Virus record (IMG/VR): IMGVR_UViG_3300042868_014220
DNA length: 17,077 nt
Direction: 5' to 3' (one strand)
Origin: a virus
Taxonomy: Duplodnaviria; Heunggongvirae; Uroviricota; Caudoviricetes
Below, piece after piece: positions 818 through 17,077 of this stretch. Below the pieces are notes generated by a model. That model ran no database searches, had not been told where the DNA came from, and worked only from the letters and a program-made list of their open reading frames with translations. Position 1 is the stretch's first letter, and each line of letters opens with the position of its first letter. The translations under genes and the position numbers were made by a program.

Positions 818-1150
818 TTAAGTTATTAAATATTTCTTATCCATTAACAGGAACCTTGTTAATTTTACCTTATCAACAGGTAAGTTATATCTATCTTGAA
901 ACCATTTACCAATAAGATTTAAAGAGTCATTTATATCAAGCATAAAAAAATCGGTTAATTTTTCCGTAATATCTCTTTGAATAGTTAAAGTTCCTGGTTC
1001 CTTCCAACCGAACTCATTATAATCACCTTCCGAACTTTTAAAAACGACATCAAATAATAAACCATCGTCGGATTCAAGTCCACCAAAATCCATATCCAAA
1101 TACTTGAATATTGTTTGTTCCAATTTACTTTCAGTTATTATATATTTCAT
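818..1150 (-). CDS. Hypothetical protein, MKYIITE-leader ~100-aa family
   Basis: MKYIITESKLEQTIFKYLD start and ...LTDFFMLDINDSLNLIGKWFQDRYNLPVDKV family C-terminus; starts 2 nt after the upstream stop. Confidence 0.9.
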   Translation of the reverse strand: MKYIITESKLEQTIFKYLDMDFGGLESDDGLLFDVVFKSSEGDYNEFGWKEPGTLTIQRDITEKLTDFFMLDINDSLNLIGKWFQDRYNLPVDKVKLTRFLLMDKKYLIT

Positions 1151-1152
1151 TA

Positions 1153-2148
1153 CTACTCTTTAATTTTACTCACATTTTTTGCTCTATAATCAAAAACAAT
1201 TGGTAAACCACCTGTTGATTTCTTCAAAATATGTTTAAGGTCATAAACAATGTCATCAAAATTAAACCGACTCATAATACTCGAATAATTAATAGTCAAT
1301 TTAATGTATATTGATGGAGTTGAATCGTATGGTTTACCTGACATATCGGTTCTAGCACCTGTCATCATATTTACCTCATCCACTTTAACTGAATCAATCA
1401 CGGCAATATCATCACAAGAACCAAAGCCAACATCTCCACCATAGTTTTCTGCAGATAAGTCTTCATTACAAAAACCACGAATATAGTCCAATTTATTGTT
1501 AATTAAGTCCTGAAATACCTCAATTTTACTTAGTTTTGTTTCAAATAACCTATTATATTGAGATTCGGTGACAATAATTTTCTTCACAGATTCGTTAGCT
1601 CTATTTTTGAGAGTTTTATCGTATTCTTTCTTAATTTTGGATGAAAATTGTGCAACAAAAAAATAATATAATTCATCTTTTTCTTTAGGTGTTGGTGTAT
1701 AATCTGTAATAGAATCAATTAAATTATTAAATAAGGTATCACATACATCCGAAATAAAATCGCCAGATTTAGTATAAAGATATGCATTTATTTCATAATC
1801 AAGAACATTCCTCAATTCTTTATTAAAATCATACGTCATGAATCTTCTTTTAAGTCTCTGTGAAATATCTTCATTTATAGAATCCTCAACACCACATTCT
1901 TCAAAGGTAACATCAACTCCAACAACTAAACCAAACCATTTTCTAATTTCACTACTAATTCCTTGTTCCATTCTTTTAACAATAAAATCAGGTTTTGATA
2001 ACCAATGTTTTAAATCCAAAACAATATGAACCCAATAAGTTTCATTATTCCCATATTCATTTACTTCAATATCCGCCCAAGTCCTACACATACCTTCCAA
2101 ATTATATGATGAAATAAATTCCTCAAGAAGTTTTATAGTTCTATCCAT
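1153..2148 (-). CDS. Hypothetical multi-module protein (331 aa)
   Basis: Long ORF with TATTTAT 5 nt upstream of the ATG and an internal leader-like segment VKKIIVTESQYNRLF. Confidence 0.9.
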   Translation of the reverse strand: MDRTIKLLEEFISSYNLEGMCRTWADIEVNEYGNNETYWVHIVLDLKHWLSKPDFIVKRMEQGISSEIRKWFGLVVGVDVTFEECGVEDSINEDISQRLKRRFMTYDFNKELRNVLDYEINAYLYTKSGDFISDVCDTLFNNLIDSITDYTPTPKEKDELYYFFVAQFSSKIKKEYDKTLKNRANESVKKIIVTESQYNRLFETKLSKIEVFQDLINNKLDYIRGFCNEDLSAENYGGDVGFGSCDDIAVIDSVKVDEVNMMTGARTDMSGKPYDSTPSIYIKLTINYSSIMSRFNFDDIVYDLKHILKKSTGGLPIVFDYRAKNVSKIKE

Positions 2149-2195
2149 TTATTATAAATACCTCGTTAAATATAAATAAGGAAATATTTATAGTT

Positions 2196-2345
2196 ATGTC
2201 AGTAGAAGAAGCAAAAAATTTTTTATCAAACAGGGGATTATCATCTTGTTCGTGTGCGTATGGTGGAATAGATGGATTAGTTAATGAGGCAATCCGATTG
2301 AAGAATTTAGAGGAACAAAAAAACCCCACCATTAGTGAGGGTTAA
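2196..2345 (+). CDS. Small hypothetical protein (49 aa, MSVEEAKNFLSNRGLSSCSCAYGG...)
   Basis: Manual translation; TATTTAT at 2185-2191 just before the ATG, divergent from 1153..2148. Confidence 0.55.
   Translation: MSVEEAKNFLSNRGLSSCSCAYGGIDGLVNEAIRLKNLEEQKNPTISEG
2317..2343 (-). terminator. Intrinsic terminator
   Basis: Minus strand reads AACCCTCAC-TAATG-GTGGGGTT (one bulge) running into a T7 tract, just after the 2352..2588 stop. Confidence 0.65.
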
Positions 2346-2351
2346 TTTTTC

Positions 2352-2588
2352 TTATTCATCAAATTTCCAAATTTCAATATCAACTCCAAATTCAGTGGAT
2401 ATTTCGTTGATACATTTTTCAATGTCAGATTCAAATGCCAAAAAAGTTCTATATATTTTATAAATATCTTTTCTTCTAACTTCCATAAACCCATTAGTTT
2501 TATGGACAACCAAACAATATTCTCCCTCTTCAAATTTTAATTCGGTTAGTTGTCGTTTTATTTCAACGATAATTTCTGGTGGTGTCAT
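2352..2588 (-). CDS. Hypothetical protein (78 aa)
   Basis: ORF with a TATCTTTA promoter-like site upstream and a terminator downstream. Confidence 0.75.
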   Translation of the reverse strand: MTPPEIIVEIKRQLTELKFEEGEYCLVVHKTNGFMEVRRKDIYKIYRTFLAFESDIEKCINEISTEFGVDIEIWKFDE

Positions 2589-2627
2589 ATATTTTAAAGA
2601 TAAACATAATCATAGAACATATCAAAT

Positions 2628-2963
2628 TTAACTTACAGAAAATAGCTCATGAAACTTTTGCCTGTTTGTTTTTTCAAGTGGATAAGAAAATTTACTTACC
2701 TGAAATGAAATAAAATTATAATCAGGATAAGTAAATTTGAAAAGATTAGTTAAAATATCACTATAGGTATTTACGGTACCATTAAGTTTATGTTCTCTAT
2801 TCATATGAAGATTAACATTAATTCTAATAAGTTCATTGGTATCAAATGTTGATGGGTTAATGAATTTTTGTGTAATAAAATCCTCATATTCAACATTGGA
2901 AATCTCAAGATTCATTTTAGTAATCACAGTTAAAAACTCTTCAGGTATTTTGTATTGAATCAT
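2628..2963 (-). CDS. Hypothetical protein (111 aa)
   Basis: ORF overlapping the upstream stop by 4 nt (ATGA coupling). Confidence 0.8.
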   Translation of the reverse strand: MIQYKIPEEFLTVITKMNLEISNVEYEDFITQKFINPSTFDTNELIRINVNLHMNREHKLNGTVNTYSDILTNLFKFTYPDYNFISFQVSKFSYPLEKTNRQKFHELFSVS

Positions 2964-3325
2964 AACATTATCTTATCCTTCAAGATAGAAGGAATCATTT
3001 CCTTTAAAAGTTTAATTCTCTCTAACTCAAGTTTGATTAGTTTATTCAAACTATCAATATATCGGGTAATTTTGTCAAATTCTTCGGGTTTTAACAAGTA
3101 AATGTAACCTTTAACCTGTTTTGAGACGTTTTCTGTGGTAACTTGAACCATTTTACACTCACCATTAACATTAGAATCGTAATAGTATGGTGTAACTCCC
3201 ATTGACGGAAATTTCCTAATATCCCACGCATTTACCGTATACGGTCGTCTAACTCTTGTATTTTCTTCTTCACTGATAACATTTTTAACAATATCAACCA
3301 ATTCTGATTCATTTATATCGCTCAT
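2960..3325 (-). CDS. Hypothetical protein with INESEL leader-like N-terminus
   Basis: MSDINESELVDIVKNVISEE start; TATCTTTG at 3330-3337 (minus) directly upstream. Confidence 0.85.
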   Translation of the reverse strand: MSDINESELVDIVKNVISEEENTRVRRPYTVNAWDIRKFPSMGVTPYYYDSNVNGECKMVQVTTENVSKQVKGYIYLLKPEEFDKITRYIDSLNKLIKLELERIKLLKEMIPSILKDKIML

Positions 3326-3360
3326 GGAGCAAAGATAGGAAAAAATTTTAAAATAAAAAA

Positions 3361-3696
3361 TTAATTATTAATTCCAGGGTAATATATTCTGTCGGCTTTC
3401 CATTCAGGAGTTGAGTTAATCTTCATTCCCAATTTATCTTGCAATGAAATCTTAATTAACTTTAATGCTTTATCCATTTGAATTCCAAACATTGTATGAA
3501 CATTTCTAACCAATGGTTTAACTACCAATAATTGTGAGTTTTTGGTGTCCAATTTCATAAGGATTAGTTTAGTATCTCCTTGATGGGTATCAACAAAGAA
3601 AATAAAATGGTCAATCCTAACCTCTTTCAAATCTAAACTTTCTAAGTATAAATCAATTAACCTTCTTAATGAACTTTCTCTAGCTGTGTATTTCAT
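3361..3696 (-). CDS. Hypothetical protein, ~100-aa family (MKYTARESSL leader variant)
   Basis: Leader variant plus LIDLYLE and family-like C-terminus; ATGA-type 4-nt overlap with the upstream gene. Confidence 0.85.
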   Translation of the reverse strand: MKYTARESSLRRLIDLYLESLDLKEVRIDHFIFFVDTHQGDTKLILMKLDTKNSQLLVVKPLVRNVHTMFGIQMDKALKLIKISLQDKLGMKINSTPEWKADRIYYPGINN

Positions 3697-4064
3697 TTAT
3701 TATAATTTGTTAATTTATCCCATATTTTTTTACCGATACGACTTGATATCTCCGTTCTTTCCATACTAATAACTGGAATTCCTATTGAATACTCAGTATA
3801 ATCATAGTCATAAGATTCGTAGATTATTACAGGGACGTTTCCCACATTAAATTTGATTTGGCTAGATAAAAAAGGGTGAGGAGGTGATTTAAACTCGACA
3901 TTTGAAATATTCCCATCATTAGCCGCTTTCAATATAATTGATGCTATTGTTTGGTCATCTCCAATCAATGTCCTAAATTTTTGTAAAAGAGATGGGTTAT
4001 AAGGAGTTCTACTTAATTTAGAAAAAATATTTCCAAGTTGGTTTTGTTCAAGAATTATTTTCAT
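3693..4064 (-). CDS. Hypothetical protein (123 aa; start revised to MKIILEQNQL)
   Basis: The ORF-track start at 4148 overlaps the neighbouring gene; ATG 4064 lies 4 nt after that gene's stop and gives a leader-like N-terminus. Confidence 0.8.
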   Translation of the reverse strand: MKIILEQNQLGNIFSKLSRTPYNPSLLQKFRTLIGDDQTIASIILKAANDGNISNVEFKSPPHPFLSSQIKFNVGNVPVIIYESYDYDYTEYSIGIPVISMERTEISSRIGKKIWDKLTNYNK

Positions 4065-4068
4065 ATTA

Positions 4069-4383
4069 TCAATTTTTGAAATGAATAGTTTCAATACCTT
4101 TAACACTGTTAACCTCAACTCCCGTACTATTTTGAACCCATCTTCCAATTACTTGTTTAGATTCGGTTTTGCTTAAAGAAAAAAAATCAGAAACTTCTTT
4201 AATTAATTTATGAGAAACATAACAATCTCCATCGGGTTTATAAAGATAGATTTTAGCATATTCATTATCTTTAGAATTAAGAAAAAATATTTCATCTGAT
4301 TTTTTCTGTATAACCAAACTTTTCATTTCTAAATATCTAAAAATTCCTCTGTCGTATTGTGATTCTGTTATGATATACTTCAT
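4069..4383 (-). CDS. Hypothetical protein, MKYIITE-leader ~100-aa family
   Basis: MKYIITESQYDRGIFRYLE...VSDFFSLSKTESKQVIGRWVQNSTGVEVNSV. Confidence 0.9.
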   Translation of the reverse strand: MKYIITESQYDRGIFRYLEMKSLVIQKKSDEIFFLNSKDNEYAKIYLYKPDGDCYVSHKLIKEVSDFFSLSKTESKQVIGRWVQNSTGVEVNSVKGIETIHFKN

Positions 4384-4761
4384 TTAAGATAAATACATAG
4401 GAACACAAAAATCTCCAATAACTTTACCTGACTCAATAACCTTTTCTGGTTTAAACTCATCTGACCAATCATATTCACTTGGTGTAATGTCAGGATGATA
4501 ATTTGGTCCAATCTTAACTTTAAGTTTTTCCTCAGCCCAATCTTTAATGTAATCCTTATCTTCTATACTATCCAAAGATATATAACGAAATAAAGGGGTG
4601 AAAACTTCGTAATTATACCACAGATAATCTAATCTTGAGGCTCCAACGTGAATTACCCATTCTTTTGTTTCTGGATTAATAATCCACAACCCATCATCAT
4701 ATACATATAACAAACAATCTTTGACTTGAGTATCAATAACTTTAAAAACTATTTTCTTCAT
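4384..4761 (-). CDS. Hypothetical protein, ~100-aa family (leaderless)
   Basis: LWYNYEVFTPLFRYISLDSIEDKDYIKDWAEEKLKVKI matches the family pattern; abuts both neighbours. Confidence 0.85.
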   Translation of the reverse strand: MKKIVFKVIDTQVKDCLLYVYDDGLWIINPETKEWVIHVGASRLDYLWYNYEVFTPLFRYISLDSIEDKDYIKDWAEEKLKVKIGPNYHPDITPSEYDWSDEFKPEKVIESGKVIGDFCVPMYLS

Positions 4762-5057
4762 TTGATGAATTTATTTAAATCTGAGAATTTTTTAATATTA
4801 TGTTTATCTCCAAACCAATCACGAATTTTTCTCATGGCATCTTCCTCAGTAATGTTAAACCAAGAGGATATGAAGTTGTTTAACTTAACATTTCGGCAAA
4901 GAACAAATTCGTTAGGTTTATTAACCCAAAACGACACAATGGTTGTTCCATTTTCGGAACAAAGACTATAGTTAATTCGGTTATTCCACGTAATTCGTTT
5001 AACTACAACCTCATCTCCAAGATATTTATCCAAGAATTTATTGATTATTATACTCAT
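4758..5057 (-). CDS. Hypothetical protein, ~100-aa family (leaderless)
   Basis: IINKFLDKYL...FISSWFNITEEDAMRKIRDWFGDKHNI; first gene of a five-gene unit. Confidence 0.85.
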   Translation of the reverse strand: MSIIINKFLDKYLGDEVVVKRITWNNRINYSLCSENGTTIVSFWVNKPNEFVLCRNVKLNNFISSWFNITEEDAMRKIRDWFGDKHNIKKFSDLNKFIK

Positions 5058-5395: not shown

Positions 5396-5728
5396 TTATG
5401 CTGGCTCCCGAAAACCGACGCTATTGGCATTCTGGTTAAATTCGTTATTAAACCAATCAACCACAGCCATCACACCATCTGGCCATCCAAGATAGTTTTC
5501 AATGTTATGATATAGATTGTTATTTAATATGATTACTTGTCTCCAAGTATCATACTTTGCAAGAAAAACAGGTTTACCATTATTTGTATAGTAATAATTA
5601 ATCATAACACTACCGTCTTCCTGTTCAGCAAAAACCTCAGCATCTTGTTTATTAAACTGTGGTTCCATAGAATCAATCATTTTGCTAACCAAACCAATCA
5701 TTCTATCTTCAGTGATAATATATTTCAT
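5396..5728 (-). CDS. Hypothetical protein, MKYIITE-leader ~100-aa family
   Basis: MKYIITEDRMIGLVSKMID...VVDWFNNEFNQNANSV. Confidence 0.9.
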   Translation of the reverse strand: MKYIITEDRMIGLVSKMIDSMEPQFNKQDAEVFAEQEDGSVMINYYYTNNGKPVFLAKYDTWRQVIILNNNLYHNIENYLGWPDGVMAVVDWFNNEFNQNANSVGFREPA

Positions 5729-5997
5729 AAATCAAATGATGCTTTAATAAATAATACCAATGGTATTTCATATGTCAAATATGAATCCCAATATTGTTGT
5801 TCGGTTCCTGAATCATTAATCTCCTTAAAGTCTTTTAATGAGACGTAATGTCTAATGGTATCATACACTGCTTCGCTAACGTTCTCATCATTCTCTAATT
5901 TTTCCTTAACTGCTTCAACCATCTGAGCCAATTCATCAGGGGTGAACCTTCGTTTAAGAAAGGATGAGAGTTGGGGATATGTAATGATATGTTTCAT
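5725..5997 (-). CDS. Hypothetical protein (MKHIITYPQL leader variant)
   Basis: Leader-like start; 4-nt overlap with the downstream gene. Confidence 0.85.
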   Translation of the reverse strand: MKHIITYPQLSSFLKRRFTPDELAQMVEAVKEKLENDENVSEAVYDTIRHYVSLKDFKEINDSGTEQQYWDSYLTYEIPLVLFIKASFDL

Positions 5998-6008: not shown

Positions 6009-6467
6009 TTACGTATTTGCATCTAATTTTTGGGTAATAATCTTCCTACTGATTTCATATATGTTAGGAGTATCCAACAATTCAGGGAATTGTCTTTCAC
6101 TACCAATGTAAATCTTAACATGTCCGTTTTTAGTTTTCTTTCCATTATATTCAAATGGAAATTTAACTGTCGCAATAATATAAGGAATTTTTGTATTATT
6201 AATCACCAACAAAGTAAACTTTGGTTGTTCAATATGTCGTCGAACATCAATAGCATGTTTAAATTCATAATACTTGTCAATGGTCTCTTTATTTTTTTCG
6301 TAATAAGATTTTAAATCAGTTTCCATTCTTTTTGCCAACGCTTCTAACTCATAAGTATTAAGAGGTTTATCCGAGTTTTTAATGTCTTCATAATCAAATT
6401 CTTCATTAATTACTTGTTTAATGATATTACACAAATCTGATTCAGTTAGTCTTACAACTTTTTTCAT
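6009..6467 (-). CDS. Hypothetical protein with MKKVVRLTESDL leader; paralog of 6571..7050
   Basis: Start revised to ATG 6467 (TATTTAT at 6473-6479); shares FTL.IINN...VK....YNG....IYIG.E...P.LLDTP.I with 6571..7050. Confidence 0.9.
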   Translation of the reverse strand: MKKVVRLTESDLCNIIKQVINEEFDYEDIKNSDKPLNTYELEALAKRMETDLKSYYEKNKETIDKYYEFKHAIDVRRHIEQPKFTLLVINNTKIPYIIATVKFPFEYNGKKTKNGHVKIYIGSERQFPELLDTPNIYEISRKIITQKLDANT

Positions 6468-6489: not shown

Positions 6490-6510
6490 CCAAAAAAAGG
6501 GTTGGGATTA
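6490..6510. repeat. Intergenic repeat A, copy 1
   Basis: CCAAAAAAAGGGTTGGGATTA. Confidence 0.85.
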
Positions 6511-6570: not shown

Positions 6571-7050
6571 TTAAACATCAGGACTAACATACTGAAAAGG
6601 TTCTTGTTTATCAACCATATTCTTCACTTTCTTTTTTGCAATGTCCATAATACTTGGGGTATCCAATAACAACGGATATTTTTTTTCACCTCCAATATAT
6701 ACACTTATATAATCTTTATATATTCCATTATAAGGTAATTTCCATTTAACCTTTGCAAGTATACTTTTAGCACCCCGATTATTAATAATAGCTAAAGTAA
6801 AATGAGGGTCATCTCTAGTCTCAAGTTCAGATACCTTATTCTTAACATAATGGTATTTATGAATGATATCCTTATATTTTTCATAAAGTTTATTAAAATC
6901 AGAATTAACTTGTGATATAGAATCTTCTAAATTCACATCATCTCCGTAATCAAAGTCTTCTTCTTCAGACATTTCATTATCCTGTTCTTTAATCACGCGT
7001 CTAACAATCCCCATTAAATCGGATTCAGTTAATTTTATAATTTTACTCAT
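6571..7050 (-). CDS. Hypothetical protein with MSKIIKLTESDL leader; paralog of 6009..6467
   Basis: Leader plus shared C-terminal domain; TATTTAT at 7065-7071. Confidence 0.9.
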   Translation of the reverse strand: MSKIIKLTESDLMGIVRRVIKEQDNEMSEEEDFDYGDDVNLEDSISQVNSDFNKLYEKYKDIIHKYHYVKNKVSELETRDDPHFTLAIINNRGAKSILAKVKWKLPYNGIYKDYISVYIGGEKKYPLLLDTPSIMDIAKKKVKNMVDKQEPFQYVSPDV

Positions 7051-7127: not shown

Positions 7128-7295
7128 CTACACATCATTTGGTTTATGTATTACAATATTCCCACCCATATTTTCACGAATCTTAATATTCACCAATTTT
7201 TCCACAATCTCTTCCAATTCTTTCTTCATAAAATCATATGAAATAATTCGTGGATAAAAAGAAGGGTAATCTGTAAAATCTGTTATTGGTTCCAT
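7128..7295 (-). CDS. Small hypothetical protein (55 aa, MEPITDFTDY...MGGNIVIHKPNDV)
   Basis: Manual translation; TAATG stop/start overlap with 7295..7453 and a shared GGNI.IHKP C-terminus. Confidence 0.7.
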   Translation of the reverse strand: MEPITDFTDYPSFYPRIISYDFMKKELEEIVEKLVNIKIRENMGGNIVIHKPNDV

Positions 7296-7453
7296 TATAA
7301 TGTTTTTGGTTTGTGTATTTCAATATTCCCACCCAATTTCTTACGAAGTATAATATTAGCCCATTTATCCATTCTTATTTGCCATTCTTTCATTATAGAC
7401 TCACTTGGTATAATTGGTTGTGCCGCAATAATATAAAATTCTTTTTTATCCAT
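7295..7453 (-). CDS. Small hypothetical protein (52 aa, MDKKEFYII...LGGNIEIHKPKTL)
   Basis: Manual translation; consensus promoter directly upstream and paralogous C-terminus with the next ORF. Confidence 0.7.
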   Translation of the reverse strand: MDKKEFYIIAAQPIIPSESIMKEWQIRMDKWANIILRKKLGGNIEIHKPKTL

Positions 7454-7566: not shown

Positions 7567-7869
7567 TTATAATGATTTAATATACCATCGAATGTCAGGT
7601 CTACTATTCTTTCGAATTAATTTAATGGTCTTATCGGCATCTTTTCTATTATTAAAAATATATGGAGATTCATCATCACCCAATCTCCTTCTAAATTCAG
7701 TAGAGGTTGGTACCATAGAATAACCACCATTTCCCGTATAAATAAATATACCCACTCCTCTTATGTGGTCAGCCTCACCATAAATAATATATTCCGATTC
7801 AGATTCCATTAAAAATCTCTTAACTAAAGAAACCAAATCACCCTCCGTTAATTTTATAATTTTTCCCAT
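7567..7869 (-). CDS. Hypothetical protein with MGKIIKLTEGDL leader
   Basis: Leader motif; TATTTAT at 7875-7881. Confidence 0.85.
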   Translation of the reverse strand: MGKIIKLTEGDLVSLVKRFLMESESEYIIYGEADHIRGVGIFIYTGNGGYSMVPTSTEFRRRLGDDESPYIFNNRKDADKTIKLIRKNSRPDIRWYIKSL

Positions 7870-7891: not shown

Positions 7892-7911
7892 CCAAAAAAG
7901 GGCTGGGATTA
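7892..7911. repeat. Intergenic repeat A, copy 4
   Basis: CCAAAAAAGGGCTGGGATTA; contains the stop codon of the HNH gene. Confidence 0.85.
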
Positions 7912-8964
7912 AATCGAACGAAGTGAGTTCGGGTTCGGCGGTACACGAACATCCCCAAGATATTCTTCAACCAAATATTCAAACTCAGGAAGAATCTTAT
8001 TACTTTTATTTTGATTATCTTTACGCCACAACGGTTGTAGATTTGTGTAATGATTTAATTTAAAAATATCCTCTTCGGTGTTAGCCAAAGATAAGGGAAC
8101 CTTATGGTCCAATTCCCACAACCCCTTATTCTCCCAAGACATCCCATTCACAAATTGATTTTCAATATGACGATAAAACCCTTCATAATCAATCCCCAAT
8201 ATTTTATTTGTATGTGACTTTTTTGAATATCCTTTGTTAGTAAAGGATAAAAGTATAAGTCTTCTAATATTATGTTTTAATTTATATTTGGGGTCTTTTG
8301 ATAATCTCCTCTTAACATTATCATATTTGTGAATTTTAACTTTTTCAGGATTCTCAATTCTCCATCTTCTAACTCCACCATAATATTTATCAGGATTACT
8401 CTGTTGCCACTCTTTCATATAATTAGGATTGACAATCCTATATTGTTTCATATATTTTTTTCTTGGTTCTGAGTTTTCTTTATTATATGACTTTTTATCA
8501 CCAACGTGACATTCTATACAATCATTACGTCTCCCATCATTGGAATCCTTACGAACATAAAAATCATTTGCAGGTTTTTCTTTCCCACATTTAATACAGA
8601 CTTTGGTAATCAAATCTTTCACAGGGTCTTTTCTCAATGATACATATAATTTAACTCCCTCATGTTTTAATACCTCAGAAATATAAGTGTCCCCTTTTTT
8701 GAAGAATCTTGCAGTATCCTTTAAACTTTTGGTTGTATAGTATTTATCCACAATCATTTGATTAGTTATCTCAGGTTTACCAACCCCCTGTCTATAACAC
8801 CCACAAGATTTTGATTTACCCTTAACAATACCTCGTAATATGTTTTTCTTAATTGTTCCACATAAACATTTACATAAGACATACTGTTCTTTGTTTTTTT
8901 CTCTTGGAATATATTCCAATATTTCCCAATTGTAATATTTTTCACCAATAAGGTTTTTATCCAT
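7909..8964 (-). CDS. Multi-domain HNH (homing-type) endonuclease
   Basis: N-terminal CKCLCG...KSCGC Zn module, CIKCG...CIEC Zn module, and C-terminal WELDHKVPLS...LNHYTNLQPLWRKDNQNK HNH motif. Start revised to MDKNL (ATG 8964), 4 nt after TATCTTTG. Confidence 0.85.
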   Translation of the reverse strand: MDKNLIGEKYYNWEILEYIPREKNKEQYVLCKCLCGTIKKNILRGIVKGKSKSCGCYRQGVGKPEITNQMIVDKYYTTKSLKDTARFFKKGDTYISEVLKHEGVKLYVSLRKDPVKDLITKVCIKCGKEKPANDFYVRKDSNDGRRNDCIECHVGDKKSYNKENSEPRKKYMKQYRIVNPNYMKEWQQSNPDKYYGGVRRWRIENPEKVKIHKYDNVKRRLSKDPKYKLKHNIRRLILLSFTNKGYSKKSHTNKILGIDYEGFYRHIENQFVNGMSWENKGLWELDHKVPLSLANTEEDIFKLNHYTNLQPLWRKDNQNKSNKILPEFEYLVEEYLGDVRVPPNPNSLRSI

Positions 8965-8968
8965 CCCA

Positions 8969-9000
8969 CAAAGATATGGAATTATCAAAATTTTTCCAAA
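8969..9000 (-). promoter_or_regulatory. Bacteroidota primary-sigma promoter
   Basis: TTTG (9000-8997), N20, TATCTTTG (8976-8969). Confidence 0.8.
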
Positions 9001-9057: not shown

Positions 9058-9354
9058 CTACCCCAAACCTCTAATATTCAAACTTGGGAATTTCTTACCT
9101 AAGTACTCAATCATTAACTGATATGAATGTTCCCCAAACATTCCATATAATAAATCCTCCATTGAATCGTTTGAATAATAGAATTGGTTGGCAACAACGG
9201 TTCCAAATATTTCCCCTCTACCATCCCTAATGTAGTTATAATGAATTCCACCCATTCTCTCATTATCCTTTTCATCGTAACTTAAATCGTGTACCGAATC
9301 CATATAAGAATCAAAGATTTCTATTAGTCGGTTTTCATTTATGATGTATTTCAT
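9058..9354 (-). CDS. Hypothetical protein, MKYIINE-leader ~100-aa family
   Basis: Start revised to ATG 9354; the upstream sequence TACCTTTGTATTTATATCATATG contains both promoter motifs. Confidence 0.85.
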   Translation of the reverse strand: MKYIINENRLIEIFDSYMDSVHDLSYDEKDNERMGGIHYNYIRDGRGEIFGTVVANQFYYSNDSMEDLLYGMFGEHSYQLMIEYLGKKFPSLNIRGLG

Positions 9355-9794: not shown

Positions 9795-10071
9795 AATCAT
9801 AAATACTCATACCCCCGACCAAAAAGGGATAATTTTTTCCCAAAATTTTTATTTGCGTAGTAGAGGGGATTATCCCCCCTAATCTGACATTCTGACATAT
9901 AGTAAGGGGGGATACGGGGGGAGGGGGGGTGTATACCCCATGCCAAAGGGGAGGGGGAGGTAAGGATGTTAATAACTATTGTTATCCACAAGTTATACCC
10001 CCCTCCTATGTGGACAAGTATGTCCCACGAAGTATGAGATGTTTACAACACCTCCAAGGTGTGTGAATAAC

Positions 10072-10518
10072 TTAATTAGGTAATGTCATCTCGTCATTCC
10101 CATTAAGAATGGGTGGAAGATATTTCGGGTAGGTAATGAATGTACCAATCTCAAGTTGCTTATGAAGCTTTAGTTCATTAGGAAGAGCGGGGGACTTGTG
10201 TATACCATTCATCAGTGTCCCCATATCTTTATTAATCTTATCTACCGACTCACGGTTATTAAAGAATGTGTTAAGGTATGGAGCCCAATAGTCTTCCCCT
10301 CTCTGTAGTGAACGGGTTACAATGGACCACACGGGAATACCGTACATATGACCAAGTATGTATGGGTCAATAACAAGTTCAAGGTATAAGGCATACTTCC
10401 ATCTATTGATATCATCGTCATCTCTTGCATATACATTCTTAACGAATGGGAACTCTTTCATCAGGGCTTTCTTTGTTACCTTGTATTCATAATTGTCTTC
10501 TAACTCTTCTTTGGTCAT
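10072..10518 (-). CDS. Hypothetical protein (148 aa)
   Basis: Clean ORF with TATTTAT at 10523-10529. Confidence 0.85.
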   Translation of the reverse strand: MTKEELEDNYEYKVTKKALMKEFPFVKNVYARDDDDINRWKYALYLELVIDPYILGHMYGIPVWSIVTRSLQRGEDYWAPYLNTFFNNRESVDKINKDMGTLMNGIHKSPALPNELKLHKQLEIGTFITYPKYLPPILNGNDEMTLPN

Positions 10519-10541
10519 AACAATAAATATATGATATTATG

Positions 10542-10573
10542 TTTGGGGGTTTGAAATATTATCCGTACCTTTG
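10542..10573 (+). promoter_or_regulatory. Bacteroidota primary-sigma promoter with no ORF behind it
   Basis: TTTG (10542-10545), N20, TACCTTTG (10566-10573). Confidence 0.75.
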
Positions 10574-10580
10574 TATTGTT

Positions 10581-10685
10581 GTTTTAGTGGCGGGGTCATT
10601 AGCAAAGGGTTCAATTTTTATTGCAGAGGGTATACTCCAACCTGCTTTATATTTTATATAAAGTTATTCCCCACCCATTAGAAAC
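10581..10685 (+). ncRNA. Candidate structured non-coding RNA
   Basis: Starts at the expected TSS of the promoter; ends pair (GTTTTAGTGGCGGGG with CCCCACCCATTAGAAAC); internal hairpins GCAG..CTGC and CTTTATAT-TTT-ATATAAAG. Confidence 0.4.
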
Positions 10686-10689
10686 AAAA

Positions 10690-10828
10690 AACCCCACACT
10701 TTAATGAATAAAAAATTCCGTGTAGGTAACGATTGGTTAATAAGTATTTGAAGGTCGGTACCAAACTTTACGTCCATTAAGGTCCTGAGTGGTGAATCCC
10801 CTACTGAGGGGGAATACTAACGTTCTAC
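10690..10828 (-). ncRNA. Candidate structured non-coding RNA
   Basis: TATTTAT at 10830-10836 with no nearby ATG; nested pairings GTAG/CTAC, AACG/CGTT, AGTATT/AATACT enclose a CCCCT-CAGT-AGGGG hairpin; ends in GTGTGGGG-TTTTT. Confidence 0.4.
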
Positions 10829-10881
10829 AATAAATATAATGTATATGTTGAAAATCTAAATACTTGTTATATATTTGTAGT

Positions 10882-11016
10882 ATGAAAAAATTAATTAAAG
10901 CCGTTGTTATTGGTTATGCTGTATTATGGATTGCAGATTCAGTTAAGAGTGCATTTAAAGACAATGAGATTAACTCGTTGGATGATATTAAGAAATTCCT
11001 TAAGGATAAGTTATAA
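10882..11016 (+). CDS. Small protein with hydrophobic N-terminal segment (44 aa, MKKLIKAVVIGYAVLWIADSVK...)
   Basis: Manual translation; TATATTTG at 10870-10877 lies 4 nt upstream. Confidence 0.65.
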   Translation: MKKLIKAVVIGYAVLWIADSVKSAFKDNEINSLDDIKKFLKDKL

Positions 11017-11265
11017 TTAATATCCCCGTTCCTTAATAAGGTCCTGACACGTCTTGATAATCTCTCTTGGGGTGGGGACTTCCCCTGCCATATCATATAA
11101 CCCTTCTATCTTTGCATCCACACATCCCCAAGCATCCATACTAATAGGTTTGTTCTGAAAGGAGTTCTTTGCTTTCTCGAAATACAATATCACAACCTCT
11201 TTATCTTTGTGGGTAACTATTATTCTTAGTCTCCCCACCTCTATCTCACTTAATTCATATGTCAT
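11017..11265 (-). CDS. Hypothetical protein (82 aa; start probably MTYELSEIE)
   Basis: The 3' part reads as protein-like; the ORF-track extension to 11361 runs through DnaA-box/TGACA elements. Confidence 0.65.
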   Translation of the reverse strand: MTYELSEIEVGRLRIIVTHKDKEVVILYFEKAKNSFQNKPISMDAWGCVDAKIEGLYDMAGEVPTPREIIKTCQDLIKERGY

Positions 11266-11558
11266 ATGTGGATAAGATAAGTTGGAACATATAAAAATAA
11301 ACATATCCACACATAAGTTATCCACCTGACACACTGACAGTTGTGTCTCCACGTGACCCAAAGGGGAAATGTGGAGGGGAAAATTATCTTAATTGTGGAT
11401 AAGTTTGGGGGTAATTTATTTGGAATTGTCATAATGTCAGGGGACTGACACAATGGGGATAATCCCCTCGCCTACTATTACCCACTCCATCTTACTACAT
11501 TATCCCCCACTTTCCACCACCGATATGGTTATGTAGATGGTGTAGTAACCACTTTTTT

Positions 11559-11590
11559 CCCCCTGACAGTATCAGGAGAGGGGTTTTTTT
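11559..11590 (+). terminator. Probable intrinsic terminator without an obvious upstream gene
   Basis: CCTGA-CAGTA-TCAGG inner stem, CCCC/GGGG outer stem, then T7. Confidence 0.5.
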
Positions 11591-12030
11591 ACTATACGTA
11601 TTTTCCAGCTAAAAAAGGAAGACTAAGTTCAGGACGCGGGGAAACGACTGTAAGGAGTGTTATAGTGGTATTTTATACCCCTTCAACGAAGAATCGGTAG
11701 GTTATTTAGACCCCAACGAGGTGACAATGTAACGTCCCTTCATAGAAAGACAAGGCGAAGTGTGAGTGAAACGAACACATGGTGGAGTAAAGTGGATTAT
11801 ATCTAATTACATATAGTTTGGACCCGTAGGGTTGTTTTATATGTAAACACGTATAATCCATAATATATCGTGTCATATAACGATATTTCATTTATATGGT
11901 ACATTTATACGATATCATAAGGTTATCTACCATTCATACCATATTTCTCATTTATCGTGTAATTAAACGATTACTAATCACATCTCATTCTGTGTTGTTG
12001 TAGGATGGGGACCTGATAACTAAAGGCGGG

Positions 12031-12047
12031 GATTAAAGGATGGGGTT
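12031..12047. repeat. Inverted repeat, left copy
   Basis: GATTAAAGGATGGGGTT. Confidence 0.75.
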
Positions 12048-12102
12048 ATGAATGAAGTGTGGGAACACAAAGTGTTCCGCTTTCCACACGGAATGAGTAA
12101 CC

Positions 12103-12727: not shown

Positions 12728-13012
12728 ATGGAGAAACTTATATTTAAATACCTAAATTGTATGTACCCTAAAACTTATCGTAAATTGACTAAGTTTGGGT
12801 ATGAACTATGTGGGTATAATGAAACCAATACAGATTGGATTTATGTTAGAGGTAATATGATTAAATCCATCATGGCTTTATTCTGTTGTAATTGGATTAC
12901 CGCTGATGATATGATAAATAAATGGATTGATACTCTTTGGGTTCTTGATGATTCTATATTAACTACAACAGAACGTATTATAATCTCTAAACGTTATAAT
13001 ATTGATTGTTAG
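12728..13012 (+). CDS. Hypothetical protein, ~100-aa family (leaderless, MEKLIFKYLN)
   Basis: ATG 5 nt after the -7 element; LIFKYLN and MINKWI family motifs. Confidence 0.8.
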   Translation: MEKLIFKYLNCMYPKTYRKLTKFGYELCGYNETNTDWIYVRGNMIKSIMALFCCNWITADDMINKWIDTLWVLDDSILTTTERIIISKRYNIDC

Positions 13013-13077: not shown

Positions 13078-13383
13078 ATGAATTACGCAATACCTAATGA
13101 ACGATTAAATAACCTTATGAGTGATTACCTTAATGATTTTATGGATGGTTGTAATGTATCTAAGTTTGATAGTTTTATTGCATTATCTAAAAAGAATCAC
13201 GACGATTTTGAATATACCGAAGTCCTTATGGAATATGATTATTCTGATAGTAGATTATGGATGGATACAAATACCGTTAATAATTTTATTACTTGGTTCC
13301 CCATCTCTCGTCCCGAAGCCAAAAAGTTTATTAAAGATTGGTTTGAGAATACTTTTAATGTAAAAATATCTTACGTATCTTAA
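13078..13383 (+). CDS. Hypothetical protein, ~100-aa family (MNYAIPNERL leader variant)
   Basis: TATTTATATCATATG upstream (identical to the 9354 gene); LW...FITWFPISRPEAKKFIKDWFENTFNVKISYV. Confidence 0.9.
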   Translation: MNYAIPNERLNNLMSDYLNDFMDGCNVSKFDSFIALSKKNHDDFEYTEVLMEYDYSDSRLWMDTNTVNNFITWFPISRPEAKKFIKDWFENTFNVKISYVS

Positions 13384-13398: not shown

Positions 13399-13809
13399 TT
13401 ATTTCATCATATGTTTGAATACCTTCTTGATATCCTTGGGTAATTTACTGATTGGTATTTCTTTTCCCTTGATAGTCTTTAATCCTTTTCTAACAGCCTT
13501 TTGTGCTCTGTGGTGTCCGTCTACTATAGATATGAATTTTCCATCATCATCCACAAATATTAGTATAGGGTATTTTAACTCGGCCTTATCTATTTTCTTA
13601 ACCTCATCTTCATCATCATCCCAAGTTAATAGATGTGGTTTTAATTCTTCTACAGATATTTTTTCCACAGGAATATCTTCGGTGGCATTTAATAAATCCA
13701 TAAGGGTTATTTTATCACCCTCTTCATTTTCCCAAGATGTGTCGTGTAATCCTTCATTGATTATCCCCATCATCTGTTTAATCCTTTGTATGTTCTCTTG
13801 TAAGTTCAT
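13399..13809 (-). CDS. ParB/Sulfiredoxin-like domain protein with MNLQENIQRIKQMMG leader
   Basis: LKYPILIF...IVDGHHRAQKA is the ParB/Srx PI...DGHHR signature; TATTTAT at 13815-13821. Confidence 0.8.
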   Translation of the reverse strand: MNLQENIQRIKQMMGIINEGLHDTSWENEEGDKITLMDLLNATEDIPVEKISVEELKPHLLTWDDDEDEVKKIDKAELKYPILIFVDDDGKFISIVDGHHRAQKAVRKGLKTIKGKEIPISKLPKDIKKVFKHMMK

Positions 13810-13861: not shown

Positions 13862-14302
13862 ATGAAAGTAATCATTACAGAATCCAAGTTAACCAATATT
13901 ATTTATAAATTCCTTGAATTGTCCTATGATGGGTTTGATAATTGTTGGATTGATTGGGGTAACTATGGTTGTAACTTGGGTATATGTTGTGACCCTTATT
14001 CTATTATATTTGTTCCCCCTAAAGAAAAATCATTTGATGACTTTATATTTAAGTTGGCTGATTCCCGTAACTATAATGAGTATGGTGATAACTATCCTTC
14101 TGAATGGATGCATGAAACGCCAGATACTTGTAGTGAACACCCCGACGTTAAGGACCCAAATTTTGATACTATCATATTGTCCGAAGGTATGTATGATAAA
14201 TTAAAGAGTTTCTTTGGTACAACAACTATGTTGAAGGAGCCTCTATTAAACATTATAAACGAAGTGTTCGGTTTGAATGCAACTCACATTACATCAGAGT
14301 AA
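13862..14302 (+). CDS. Hypothetical protein, MKVIITE-leader family with Cys-rich insertion
   Basis: MKVIITESKLTNIIYKFLE; TATTTAT at 13848-13854. Confidence 0.9.
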   Translation: MKVIITESKLTNIIYKFLELSYDGFDNCWIDWGNYGCNLGICCDPYSIIFVPPKEKSFDDFIFKLADSRNYNEYGDNYPSEWMHETPDTCSEHPDVKDPNFDTIILSEGMYDKLKSFFGTTTMLKEPLLNIINEVFGLNATHITSE

Positions 14303-14308
14303 ACTATT

Positions 14309-14569
14309 ATGACTAACAACGATACCCTTAAAAGAATTATCCTTAGAATGCTTAATGAGGAATACCCCATGATTACCGATGTTAAGGTTGTATCTTATGA
14401 TAATGAAGGGAAATACTATTATACCATCTTCTTGGGAATGAAATTTAAAGACTTTAATGATTTGGATACAACGGAACTTAAACAAAAGGTTAGAAGAGTA
14501 TTTAACTATGTCTATCCTCACGATACATTACAAGCAACTAATTTCTTTAACCCTGAGCCAGGGTATTAA
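14309..14569 (+). CDS. Hypothetical protein (86 aa)
   Basis: Starts 6 nt after the upstream stop; loosely similar to 9483..9794. Confidence 0.8.
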   Translation: MTNNDTLKRIILRMLNEEYPMITDVKVVSYDNEGKYYYTIFLGMKFKDFNDLDTTELKQKVRRVFNYVYPHDTLQATNFFNPEPGY

Positions 14570-14576
14570 TTCTTTT

Positions 14577-15956
14577 TTATATCAATTCATATTTTGTCAT
14601 AAATTCACGAGTCTTTTCTTTGTGACAATTTTTATGTAACATTTGTAAATTACTTTCATCTGTTAATCCTCCCTTAGAATGTTCTACAATATGGTCAGCC
14701 TCAGCTTCTGACATGACAAGATGTTCACCACAAATAACACATTTGTTTTCTTGATTAGTTAAAATACGTACTTGCATGTCTTGAGGAAAAAAACGAGTTT
14801 TATCACGTTCTACAATGTGAATAAACTTATCAATATTATCTACCAAAAATTTAACTCTTTTTGCTGTATGACCATCCTGTCCGCGACCAAAGAAACTAAA
14901 ATAAGGTTGGTACCATTCTTTATTTATCTCATCATTCATATTGGCAACATTCGCTTTTTGGTATGCAACAAACTTTTTATTCTGAGCAAATACACTATTA
15001 AGTTTTACCATAGTAGAAATAATAAAGTTTTTCATATCATCCATAGTTATAAGTTTACCCATTCTTTTCAATTTAATGGTTGCAACCATAATATCACGAA
15101 GAGATGTTGAACCCGCCTGATAATTTTTATGTACTGTTTTATATTCAACAACCGCTGAAGTGATTATTTTTAAATACTTAATTACATTATTTGACTCACC
15201 ATCAATTTCTTTATCACCATGCATACTTAACAATTGTTTTGGAGTTGGGTCTTTAGTTAAATCTTTTTGAATCATATGATAAATAAGTTTTTCGTATAAC
15301 TCATTTACTTTATTACGACCAAACTTCTTAGATAAAATTAAAGATTGTTTTGTTATATCATCCATCTCAACTATTAAAGGTTTAATAATTGAATTAATGG
15401 TACTATAAAGTCCTCCACGTAATTCGGCAGGATTTAAGTTTGAACCATTATTCCATTTCATAAAAACATAAGATTTTAAAATATTTATCTTATCTCCATC
15501 AAGACCGTAATTATCAATTTCTGTTGTTTTAATTGGAGTGTTTTTTAATTTTTCACAACATTTAGAAAATTCTACGTTACCACGTTTAACATTATAGTAA
15601 AGTGTACTTGGTTCTAAATCGGAACTATTATATTCATAATCACCATCTATAAAGTTAAAAATTGATGTGAGTCTTTGTTGACCGTCGGCAACATAATAAG
15701 TTCCGTCAGCATCAATGAAAAAAACAACTTCAGTAAGAAGTTTAGGTGTATTTAATAATGTATGAATCAACATTACTTTTTTCTTATGGTCCCAATGAAA
15801 CCCACGTTGGAACCAATCTTGAAGAACAAGTTTTTTTTCTTGATACAGTTCGTATAATTCACGAATTGTTTTAGTATCTGATGAAATATTAATTTTGCGG
15901 TCTTTTTGGAATTGGGCCCCCATTTCCATTAGTTGTGATACTGAGAAATTTTTCAT
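14577..15956 (-). CDS. DUF262 + HNH protein (GmrSD-like, putative modification-dependent endonuclease)
   Basis: FQRGFHW and VADGQQRLTSIF are DUF262 signatures; C-terminal CVICG...EADHIVEHSKGGLTDESNLQMLHKNCH is an HNH domain. Start revised to ATG 15956 behind TATATTTG (15964-15971). Confidence 0.85.
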   Translation of the reverse strand: MKNFSVSQLMEMGAQFQKDRKINISSDTKTIRELYELYQEKKLVLQDWFQRGFHWDHKKKVMLIHTLLNTPKLLTEVVFFIDADGTYYVADGQQRLTSIFNFIDGDYEYNSSDLEPSTLYYNVKRGNVEFSKCCEKLKNTPIKTTEIDNYGLDGDKINILKSYVFMKWNNGSNLNPAELRGGLYSTINSIIKPLIVEMDDITKQSLILSKKFGRNKVNELYEKLIYHMIQKDLTKDPTPKQLLSMHGDKEIDGESNNVIKYLKIITSAVVEYKTVHKNYQAGSTSLRDIMVATIKLKRMGKLITMDDMKNFIISTMVKLNSVFAQNKKFVAYQKANVANMNDEINKEWYQPYFSFFGRGQDGHTAKRVKFLVDNIDKFIHIVERDKTRFFPQDMQVRILTNQENKCVICGEHLVMSEAEADHIVEHSKGGLTDESNLQMLHKNCHKEKTREFMTKYELI

Positions 15957-16040
15957 TATGGCACAAATATAATACATTTTGCCTATTTAAAAAAACTTAT
16001 TTTTAATTCTAAGATATTTCATTATCTTTGTATTTAATGT

Positions 16041-16334
16041 ATGACTAACGAGCTATTAGATAAAGTAATGAAACCATATTGGGAATCAAAATTTGATTCT
16101 ACTGAACTTGGATACTTTGATGAGTATAAAGACCCTTGGTTTGGATTTGTCCTTAATAATGAGATATTGGTTGGTTGTCCTGTAGAGGACTTATCAAGTG
16201 GTGGTTGGTTTTATGCTGGAACTGATTTTGTAGGTGGTGACGATATGTTTGATGTAACCCGAAAAGAATTTTTATCTGCAATGGTAAGATATCTTAATAA
16301 AACATATAACGTTGAAATTAAATCAATAATATAA
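16041..16334 (+). CDS. Hypothetical protein, ~100-aa family (leaderless, divergent)
   Basis: TATCTTTG at 16023-16030; MFDVTRKEFLSAMVRYLNKTYNVEIKSI resembles the family C-terminus. Confidence 0.8.
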   Translation: MTNELLDKVMKPYWESKFDSTELGYFDEYKDPWFGFVLNNEILVGCPVEDLSSGGWFYAGTDFVGGDDMFDVTRKEFLSAMVRYLNKTYNVEIKSII

Positions 16335-16454
16335 TCTGCAGTTGTTCGGTTAAAGTTTATCCCCCACCATTGCTGATGAGGGTCTTTATTTAACAAGGTA
16401 TGATTAACACCAGGAATTGTATCCAAAACAATATTAACATAATCTCGCTTTCTG

Positions 16455-16546
16455 CAGTCAGGACAGGACTCGAACCTGTATTACGACTGTCCATATTATC
16501 TGAGTCGACGCTTATTGGGTTGTGTAAACCATTCCACCACCTGACT
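16455..16546 (-). tRNA. tRNA-like element / pseudo-tRNA, anticodon not assignable
   Basis: Perfect 7-bp acceptor AGTCAGG/CCTGACT, D-arm GTG-GAATGGTTTA-CAC and T-arm ACAGG-TTCGAGT-CCTGT; the 42-nt middle lacks a canonical anticodon arm and there is no encoded CCA. Confidence 0.65.
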
Positions 16547-16552
16547 ATTTTA

Positions 16553-17077
16553 TTATAGATATTGTTGTAGATTATATTTGTCTATAATTTGTTTGAAGAT
16601 TTGTTGTCTATTTCTTTTTCCTAAAGTTTCTTTTTTACTAATAAAACCATAACCAAATCCATATGAACCACCAATTCCCACAACTTTCCAATAATTTTGT
16701 TCGTTTATAACTGTCGGCATTAAATAACCTGTAAACTTATAGGGCATATTATCTTTAGTCCCATATACAAAATCCCCCAATTCTTTTTCATTAGTTCTTA
16801 AACCCCGTTTACTAGAATTCAATCCCAATTCTTCAACCAATACATCGTGTATATACATTGCCATACCATCAGATGAATTATAAATCAATGGTATTTTTAA
16901 ATCCTTTGAAAACTCAATTTTATCACCATTGTAAAGAATTTTAATTAAATTTGAAACTCCTCCAACTAACTTGGAAGCCTTAGCTAACCCCAAAGAAGAT
17001 ATCATGGATTTTAAAGCATCAACCTTTGACTCTCGTTCTTCCCTCAATATTCGTTTTATTGATTCCTGTAAACTCAT
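16553..17077 (-). CDS. Hypothetical protein with MSLQESIKRILREE leader
   Basis: 174-aa ORF whose ATG is at the window edge; the leader resembles that of 13399..13809, so it is probably complete. Confidence 0.85.
   Translation of the reverse strand: MSLQESIKRILREERESKVDALKSMISSLGLAKASKLVGGVSNLIKILYNGDKIEFSKDLKIPLIYNSSDGMAMYIHDVLVEELGLNSSKRGLRTNEKELGDFVYGTKDNMPYKFTGYLMPTVINEQNYWKVVGIGGSYGFGYGFISKKETLGKRNRQQIFKQIIDKYNLQQYL

Follow-up and report, generated by a model that had tools for sequence, protein, structure and literature searches.

Short N-terminal leaders ending in (I/L)-x-E on unrelated proteins of large T4-like Bacteroidota phages: candidate exchangeable capsid-targeting propeptides

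A stretch of 17,077 nucleotides of viral DNA (IMG/VR record IMGVR_UViG_3300042868_014220; "the window" hereafter designates the whole stretch analysed) encodes many small proteins that begin with short, related N-terminal leaders; 16 of its approximately 31 genes start in this way, with leaders of three related types, MKYIITE, (K/R)LTESDL and LQE/ILRE. These leaders are interpreted here as T4-like capsid-targeting propeptides, cut after (I/L)-x-E and existing in several exchangeable classes, a reading to which we assign a probability of about 0.55; the figure is no higher because core binding, cleavage, encapsidation, ejection and an effector role are all inferred. The leader observation itself is solid and reaches well beyond the window. 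An earlier note on this DNA had proposed a portable tag that loads a large and variable set of effectors into the head for injection. What stands of that proposal is a tag that is N-terminal, portable, exchangeable and predicted to lie outside the fold, that ends in (I/L)-x-E, and that is found in a clade with an S77 prohead protease and preferentially behind a promoter box used by head genes; the word "effector" and an anti-GmrSD role would be pure analogy. The window belongs to the roughly 300-kb genome of an uncultured, T4-like phage of freshwater Bacteroidota, of which it forms an accessory and hypervariable island. Two relatives were analysed as whole genomes, G003 (308,574 bp, with direct terminal repeats) and G001 (310,691 bp, 93% complete); the window shares with G001 only a gene for a ParB-like protein and with G003 this gene and two short stretches, and it is because so little DNA is common to them that it is regarded as hypervariable.

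The occurrence of the leaders is far above chance. The motif [IL][TNQ]E with its Glu at residues 5-9 is found in 11 of the 36 open reading frames (ORFs) of the window, against approximately 0.36 expected from an internal motif frequency of 0.002 per position, and in G003 the Glu falls exactly at residue 7 in 19 of 381 ORFs, against 0.85 expected. When a leader profile built without the initiator Met was run on 1,851 ORFs and matches of at least 10 bits were counted, 86 of the 89 matches began within the first 8 residues. The Ser that follows the Glu is encoded by both AGT and TCN codons, and synonymous sites vary; with mixed Ser codons, the constraint must therefore act on the peptide and not on the DNA. 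A looser predictor, [IL]-x-E anywhere within residues 4-12, was rejected as non-discriminating, being present in 18% of T4 ORFs, in 15% of those of G001 and of the cultured Flavobacterium phage vB_FspM_immuto, and in 23% of those of G003. It is in the sharing of entire leader families that the signal lies, not in [IL]-x-E by itself.

All 13 N-termini named in the earlier note were recovered at the coordinates it gave, and its statement that the clear leaders contain (I/L)-x-E holds for 14 of the 16 leaders of the window, in which I-T-E, L-T-E, L-Q-E, I-N-E or L-R-E is present. Genes are on the minus strand, their leaders starting at the higher coordinate, unless a plus sign is given; an arrow marks the boundary behind the Glu. 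MKYIITE opens three members of a family of approximately 100-residue "W-helix" proteins, namely 818-1150 (110 residues; leader at nt 1130-1150), 4069-4383 (104 residues; TATTTAT 7 nt upstream, within the end of the preceding gene) and 5396-5728 (110 residues); MKYIINE opens another, 9058-9354 (98 residues), and MKVIITE a 146-residue protein, 13862-14302 (+), with TATTTAT upstream. The LTESDL type comprises MKKVVRLTESDL at 6467, on a 152-residue protein (6009-6467; 22-residue leader MKKVVRLTE↓SDLCNIIKQVINE↓E, nt 6402-6467; TATTTAT upstream), MSKIIKLTESDL at 7050, on its 159-residue paralogue (6571-7050; MSKIIKLTE↓SDLMGIVRRVIKE↓Q, nt 6985-7050, followed by an acidic linker), and MGKIIKLTEGDL at 7869, on a 100-residue protein (7567-7869; MGKIIKLTE↓GDLVSLVKRFLME↓S, nt 7804-7869); the cargoes of the first two are homologous (E=1e-22) and the third is unrelated. 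MNLQE at 13809 begins the 136-residue ParB/Srx-like protein (13399-13809; 19-residue leader MNLQE↓NIQRIKQMMGIINE↓G, nt 13753-13809), and MSLQE at 17077 a 174-residue protein (16553-17077; MSLQE↓SIKRILRE↓E, nt 17039-17077). Variants are MKYTARE (3361-3696, 111 residues) and MNYAIPNE (13078-13383, +, 101 residues), both on members of the ~100-residue family, and the degenerate MKHIITY, devoid of Glu, on a 90-residue protein (5725-5997). Additional N-terminal copies are MSDINESELVDIVKNVISEE at 3325, on a 121-residue protein with a host-type TAnnTTTG promoter upstream (2960-3325; LTESDL-like leader MSDINE↓SELVDIVKNVISE↓E, nt 3266-3325), MKIILE at 4064, on a 123-residue protein (3693-4064; MKIILE↓QNQLGNIF), and a weak one at 14309. 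Internal copies occur in the 331-residue product of gene 1153-2148, with S-I-N-E at residues 90-93 (S-I-N-E↓D, nt 1870-1881) and KKIIVTE at residues 189-195 (KKIIVTE↓S, nt 1564-1584).

The leaders span 7-23 residues overall, and the short boundaries first drawn for them have to be extended for the LTESDL, LQE, ILRE and ITESQY classes, in which residues 11-23 hold a second (I/L)-x-E that marks the end of conservation. For the LTESDL class, 22 non-identical examples are conserved over residues 1-23, up to (V/I)-(I/L)-x-E-(Q/E/G/S), past which the sequences are unrelated and often form acidic linkers; the LQE class closes at I-(N/T)-E↓G, residue 19, and the ILRE class at L-R-E↓E, residues 11-13. 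Among 88 IITE-type N-termini, information has fallen to background by about residue 20, and 20 of them have a second φ-x-E ending at residue 15. With conservation ending at the second (I/L)-x-E, most leaders look like two-Glu modules of 11-23 residues rather than peptides of 5-9; judged from these alignments, most classes probably end there and not at the first Glu.

The claim that the cargo behind the leader differs is borne out by clustering. The leader proteins of the window, G003 and G001 number 67; clustered by BLASTP at 1e-4 after removal of the first 28 residues, they form approximately 55 cargo clusters, and without the first 25-28 residues the remainder can be aligned in small groups only. 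Conservation is far stronger in the leader than in the cargo. Pfam and PHROGs have no family for any leader cargo of the window but the ParB-like one, the long leader proteins of G003 and G001 gave sub-threshold matches only (SLT, DHH, AAA_23), and the charge of the cargoes shows a weak trend toward basic proteins. One of these long proteins, of 468 residues, is encoded in G003 at 104718-106124 (−) (L068 4721-6124) and has a weak leader, MKKLIKE↓S; its match to DHH phosphoesterases is sub-threshold (22.7 bits against a cut-off of 28.1). If packaged, this DHH-like protein would be a candidate signal-degrading anti-defence enzyme.

Conversely, a single cargo can stand behind many leaders. The ParB-like domain begins with LHDTSW and is 63-100% identical across relatives; the phrog_17560 match on the window protein starts at residue 30. 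It is preceded by MNLQENI..(I/L)(N/T)EG, by MNIIISESQYNKLF..KEG, by MKKIIRLTESELILLVKRVINEG (also written MKKIIRLTESEL..VINEG), by MGKIIRLTESEL..EEG or by MKYIISENQYNFLLEG, and alternatively it forms the C-terminal domain of proteins of 299-548 residues. The joint is always x-E-G directly before LHD, fusions included, and I, L, V or M usually lies two residues before the Glu. Similarly, the leader MSLQESIKRILRE↓E of 16553-17077 is replaced by MKELIKKVLRE↓E on the homologous cargo of G003. Gene 1153-2148 is a fusion of three modules, the second of which (residues 88-181) matches a stand-alone 106-residue G003 protein (E=1.5e-9) that begins MKIIITE↓RQ. Some ParB-like homologues (L030 2908-3507; P0031, P0041) contain a module of approximately 68 residues between two copies of the junction TEGLHDTSWEN, a duplication as expected from recombination at the leader-cargo boundary. 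In others (L028 4805-5341, L025 9947-10477, P0114 and others), the ParB-like domain is extended, behind a ..EEMKEG linker, by a small basic module that contains Cys, ELTE(K/R)CW.GYTQKGMKTMFGK.YPNC.KK; P0114 has two add-on modules, each behind an M-K-E-(G/S) linker.

The ~100-residue family combines members with and without a leader. An unrestricted iterative search for this family was abandoned as it drifted, the leader itself recruiting unrelated cargo, and was replaced by a search without the first 22 residues; defined in this way, on residues 23 onward, the family has 48 non-redundant members. Some of them have MK(Y/I/V)IITE ahead of the first helix, and leaderless members begin at that helix (MEKLIFKYL, MSIIINKFLDKYL, MKNLVFKYF, MDRLNKLCIKWL). 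The window contains leaderless members at 4758-5057 (−; MSIIINKFLDKYL, starting at the first helix), 12728-13012 (+; MEKLIFKYLN) and 16041-16334 (+; MTNELLDKVM), each with a host-type promoter. The AlphaFold2 (AF2) model of the 818-1150 protein (44 sequences; mean predicted local distance difference test score, pLDDT, 84.9) shows residues 1-6 as a coil apart from the fold and a first helix running from Glu7; this helix, directly behind MKYIITE, is part of the fold, to which the leader contributes no strand. For the ParB-like protein, whose model has a mean pLDDT of 84.1, the leader is predicted as a low-confidence helix (pLDDT ~50), with values below 50 for residues 17-22 (I-I-N-E-G-L) and of 77-96 for the domain. 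The leaders are thus predicted to lie outside the folded domains and to be dispensable for the fold of the cargo, and the possibility, raised in the earlier note, that the leader is an integral strand of one shared fold finds no place in models that put it outside the domains. A Foldseek search with the ~100-residue family model gave no PDB match, and its BFVD matches were ORFans of uncultured phages only; a word-index homology search with g4069 returned near-identical proteins only, and ESM Atlas look-ups with g6571 and g16553 nothing usable.

Both a T4 gp21-like prohead protease and the same motif at the capsid cleavage site, which had been proposed as checks, were found in relatives. Peptidase_S77 (PF03420, T4 gp21-type) is above the Pfam cut-off in G001-G004. 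Of 20 further IMG/VR contigs of at least 80 kb, picked solely by the leader DNA pattern, 14 encode it, and none of the six with a completeness of 80% or more is without it. Gp23, Portal_T4 and Terminase_6N genes flank the S77 gene in relatives. In G003, the order is portal (Portal_T4), a 239-residue gene, bS21, a 156-residue gene, S77 protease, a 69-residue gene, an acidic scaffold of 528 residues and a Gp23-type capsid protein, with a T4-type large terminase nearby, an arrangement that matches 20-67-68-21-22-23 of T4; the bS21-like gene (67 residues; 272371-272574 (+), L076 12371-12574) lies on the opposite strand between portal and protease. Over its first 120 residues, the capsid protein can be aligned with the propeptide of T4 gp23, and the maturation site GSFLTE↓A of T4 corresponds to ASFLINE↓A (L-I-N-E↓A) in G003 and is kept in G001; capsid protein, scaffold and protease of G003 all carry sites comparable to those of T4 propeptides.

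By its capsid protein, the nearest cultured relative is vB_FspM_immuto (MW353176, 160 kb; host Flavobacterium sp. LMO8), which has the same head module, S77 protease included. The MKxIITE leader was not found in immuto; related ones were, MKKQILSEQF.RMQ.LAGIITE↓S in two copies, MENFDLKKFLVEN..LLKE↓G in four, and MKKSQL..II.KE in four, one of them on a 73-residue gene between portal and protease, where T4 encodes its core proteins gp67 and gp68. An acidic immuto protein encoded between the protease and capsid genes (L096 6879-8120; MW353176 125582-126823) is annotated "DNA polymerase phi-like protein"; by its position and N-terminal similarity, it is the putative scaffold, a gp22 analogue.

Leader genes also tend to share an upstream element. 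Two box types precede the genes of the window, TAnnTTTG, which is the housekeeping -7 element of Bacteroidota, and the phage-specific A/T box TATTTAT, which sits 4-25 nt ahead of many start codons. Counted within 32 nt upstream of the start, TATTTAT precedes 8 of 12 leader genes against 3 of 24 other genes in the window (p=0.0018), 7 of 12 against 49 of 350 in G001 (p=6e-4) and 16 of 44 against 64 of 337 in G003 (p=0.017). Within the ~100-residue family, leader members have 14 TATTTAT and 2 host-type boxes and leaderless members 3 and 6 (p=0.0099); 19 leader genes of this family are inside operons and have no upstream box. TATTTAT also lies ahead of the scaffold, protease and portal genes, and its association with leaders fits a tag that would be needed while heads are built, gene 2960-3325 being an exception.

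The count of profiled leaders, which the earlier note had suggested extending to related phages, not only places 86 of 89 matches at the N-terminus, as described above, but reaches far into public data. Searched against 1.84 billion representative proteins, the 32-position LTESDL profile matched 8,746 protein clusters at E<=0.001, of which 338 reach E<=1e-10. Of the 150 strongest matches, nearly all are at residues 1-30 of proteins of 29-568 residues, many proteins have a second, internal copy that often still starts with MKK, and the matches looked up are unnamed metagenomic proteins. There is no Pfam model for the leaders, and the literature searched contains no earlier description of them.

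In phage T4, the prohead protease gp21 cuts after L/I-x-E, and the capsid-targeting sequence (CTS) of the internal proteins and of Alt, 10-19 residues in length, is their sole common feature and sufficient to load foreign proteins (PMC9026906, PMC3012670, PMC5694885). The leaders resemble the CTS of IPI, IPII, IPIII and Alt in being short N-terminal peptides on unrelated proteins that end in (I/L)-x-E (PMC9026906, PMC3012670); as in T4, a gp21-family S77 protease lies in the order gp20/protease/scaffold/gp23 and the bearers lie in hypervariable regions. Run on T4 as a positive control, the ORF analysis brings out the leader common to IPII and IPIII and that common to Alt and its neighbour. By comparison with the T4 CTS, the leaders have no similarity to MKTYQEFIAE beyond the motif, fall into at least four or five classes rather than essentially one, span 7-23 residues, often with two Glu sites, and are borne by dozens of proteins per genome (at least 44 of 381 ORFs in G003) rather than approximately five, with tandem or internal copies and multi-module proteins; they belong to a Bacteroidota phage with a genome of approximately 300 kb and are known from sequence alone. 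The core and shell propeptides of T4 (gp67, gp68, gp21, gp22, gp24, gp23) likewise carry [IL]-x-E near the N-terminus, at residues 4-10 in gp67, gp68, gp21, gp22 and gp24 of the T4 record, and the start of gp24, MAKINE↓LLRE↓S, resembles the MSDINE↓S and ..ILRE↓E leaders of the window. Unlike these essential, single-copy proteins, however, most bearers are accessory ORFans of small size that lie in variable islands.

The large genomes of phiKZ, 201phi2-1 and SPN3US provide a second comparison. In these phages, approximately 8-19 head proteins, among them paralogues with conserved N-termini, are cut after Glu by a diverged gp21-like protease, and the propeptides, most of them longer than 100 residues, are thought to target proteins into the prohead; the motif has a small P3 residue (S/A/G-x-E or A-x-E) (PMC5694885). 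The leaders do not fit a head propeptide of the phiKZ type: P3 is I, L or V in nearly all cases and the length is 7-23 residues, as in T4. The concept of capsid-loaded accessory proteins delivered with the DNA is shared with DarA, DarB, Hdf, Ulx and DdrA/B of phage P1, whose loading is hierarchical and relies on protein-protein dependencies, unlike a common short leader. Nor do the leaders, by inspection of their sequence, look like a secretion signal (Sec/lipoprotein or type IX secretion system, T9SS), for which a hydrophobic N-terminal core of at least 10 residues would be expected; they have just 3-4 hydrophobic residues, with T-E-S and a charged helix behind them. Pfam scans gave no match on leader bearers, Por_Secre_tail included.

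If the leaders function as capsid-targeting propeptides, the following sequence of events can be proposed. The module, a short hydrophobic stretch and an amphipathic helix of 7-23 residues in total, bounded by one or two (I/L/V)-x-E sites, would give a newly made protein affinity for the core of the assembling prohead, by analogy with the internal proteins and Alt of T4. Formation of the shell would enclose the tagged protein, and the prohead protease would then cut after the Glu, freeing the cargo and allowing the small propeptide to exit the head; this cleavage would also separate the modules of multi-module proteins with internal leader-like junctions. The cargo would stay with the DNA and enter the next host cell with it.

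Several points weigh against this interpretation. All its functional steps are drawn by analogy. Tagged genes, which make up about half of the window and at least 44 of 381 ORFs in G003, far outnumber the handful of CTS proteins of T4, the ~100-residue family has just 7 residues before the helix of its fold where documented CTSs have 10-19, and some variants have no motif (MKHIITY) or have A or P at P3. At least one leader gene, 2960-3325, lies behind a host-type promoter, which is probably early. A protease in the phage of the window is presumed from those of its relatives; co-occurrence of the protease with the leaders is confounded by descent, because the leader-bearing genomes seem to form one clade, and G001 has the same protease yet few IITE leaders. 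Finally, φ-T-E-S-x-φ also resembles a strong helix N-terminus.

Other explanations were weighed against the same observations. The leaders could remain in place and serve as docking or assembly peptides through which small proteins, neither trimmed nor encapsidated, bind a common hub by a strand-prone stretch and an amphipathic helix; this hub might be a chaperone or scaffold-like factor of the phage, a target in the host, or the proteins themselves by strand or helix exchange. Such docking would account for a conserved part that includes an amphipathic helix, for the helix that belongs to the fold in the ~100-residue family, for internal leader copies at domain starts and for leaders that appear flexible and exposed in the AF2 models, but it is unlikely: the (I/L/V)-x-E ending of every class, the stop of conservation exactly at that motif, the constant x-E-G joint to the ParB-like cargo even in fusions and the tie to the S77-protease clade are left unexplained. 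Still less probable is that the leaders are only processing or turnover signals, cut in the cytoplasm by the prohead protease, a host Glu-specific protease or an AAA+ protease so as to activate proteins, separate polyproteins or limit their lifetime, with no cargo in the virion. The start of the leaders, Met followed by a basic and three hydrophobic residues, resembles one class of ClpX N-terminal recognition signals, classes that Flynn et al. are said to have published in 2003. The (I/L)-x-E sites lie at module junctions of multi-module proteins, and the linker that holds the site appears exposed in the model, both of which processing in the cytoplasm would explain. However, the association with a late or head-gene box fits loading at assembly, and proteases of the T4 type act inside proheads (PMC9026906).

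It is also conceivable, though quite improbable, that the leaders have no special function and are the residue of common ancestry in a fast-diverging superfamily of paralogues, coupled with a generic strong helix start. Many bearers do belong to one expanded ~100-residue family whose fold matches only ORFans of uncultured phages, and φ-T-E-S-x-φ fits helix N-cap preferences; common ancestry would not, however, put five different leaders on one ParB-like cargo or the same leader on proteins of 29-568 residues with no detectable relation, nor does it agree with leaderless members of the ~100-residue family, with a leader conserved far above its cargo or with 8,746 clusters matching a 32-position profile. 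Hardly credible is a role at the RNA level, in which the first codons, A/U-rich and unstructured, would enhance the translation of late transcripts that are nearly leaderless, the host lacking Shine-Dalgarno pairing. The A/U-rich leader codons and the position of TATTTAT, just 4-10 nt before many leader ATGs, are as such a role would require, but synonymous sites vary and Ser alternates between the AGT and TCN families, the 19 operon-internal genes of the ~100-residue family have leaders and no box, the scaffold, protease and portal genes have the box and no such leader, and internal copies occur at domain junctions. Each of these alternatives fits fewer observations than capsid targeting.

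The surroundings of the leader genes are those of an accessory region. The window has a G+C content of approximately 30% and consists of densely packed small genes, mostly on the minus strand over this 17-kb stretch; positions 9800-12100, with few ORFs and a relatively high G+C of 0.36-0.38, divide a minus-strand block from a mixed-strand block. Only three genes are named by Pfam and PHROGs: besides the ParB-like protein (13399-13809, −; phrog_17560), these encode an HNH/EndoVII-like nuclease (7909-8988, −) and a protein with GmrSD_N (DUF262) and HNH (14577-15977, −), and the latter two genes, although in the same island as the leader genes, are themselves leaderless. Large genes for secreted proteins flank the island (window 1-729, −; L005 688-3030; L001 4268-7141); their products (780 and 957 residues) have a signal-like N-terminus and a T9SS C-terminal sorting domain (Por_Secre_tail), and to the right of the window are a gene for a sigma factor of the extracytoplasmic function (ECF) type and a DUF6089 gene. 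Two tiny tandem paralogues of 55 and 52 residues (7128-7295 and 7295-7453, −) have the common C-terminal motif GGNI(V/E)IHKP. A repeated element, AATCCCAGCCCTTTTTT(G)G, lies between gene cassettes at 6490, 7081, 7485 and 7892 (minus strand), just upstream of TATTTAT or TAnnTTTG boxes, and looks like a terminator or promoter spacer. ARAGORN reports a 93-nt "tRNA-Tyr" with an oddly placed ATA anticodon at 16454-16546 (−), for which Rfam at its gathering threshold gave nothing.

Among cultured phages, neither a megablast search with the window nor tblastn with two leader proteins gave a match. In IMG/VR, an exact-pattern scan and a search with the 331-residue protein were both empty; the ParB-like protein did match, at 49 related loci, several of them on contigs of 245-334 kb. 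Proteins identical to those of the window are encoded on metagenome contigs of up to 59.6 kb and 157.6 kb.

A broader extrapolation, possible but on balance doubtful, is that the leaders belong to a combinatorial cargo-cassette system of shuffled modules, exchangeable address peptides and protease-cut (I/L)-x-E joints, with at least one tenth of the genes of the clade encoding capsid-loaded proteins. Were this the case, it would concern a clade of ~250-330-kb aquatic Bacteroidota phages and thousands of protein families in public metagenomes, it would constitute by far the largest arsenal of injected proteins known, and the tag would offer a homology-free handle for phage effectors and anti-defence proteins. 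The leaders are easily searchable, and since the cultured phage immuto carries related ones, the idea is directly testable. The capsid-targeting sequence of T4 is the textbook route for smuggling proteins into the next host, and it concerns few T-even proteins; if the proposed reading is true, an abundant clade of huge freshwater phages would use the T4 principle at industrial scale, drawing on several address peptides that can replace one another and on polyproteins made of modules. For thousands of ORFan families, this would provide a first indication of function, "delivered with the DNA", and would make them prime candidates for host takeover and anti-defence.

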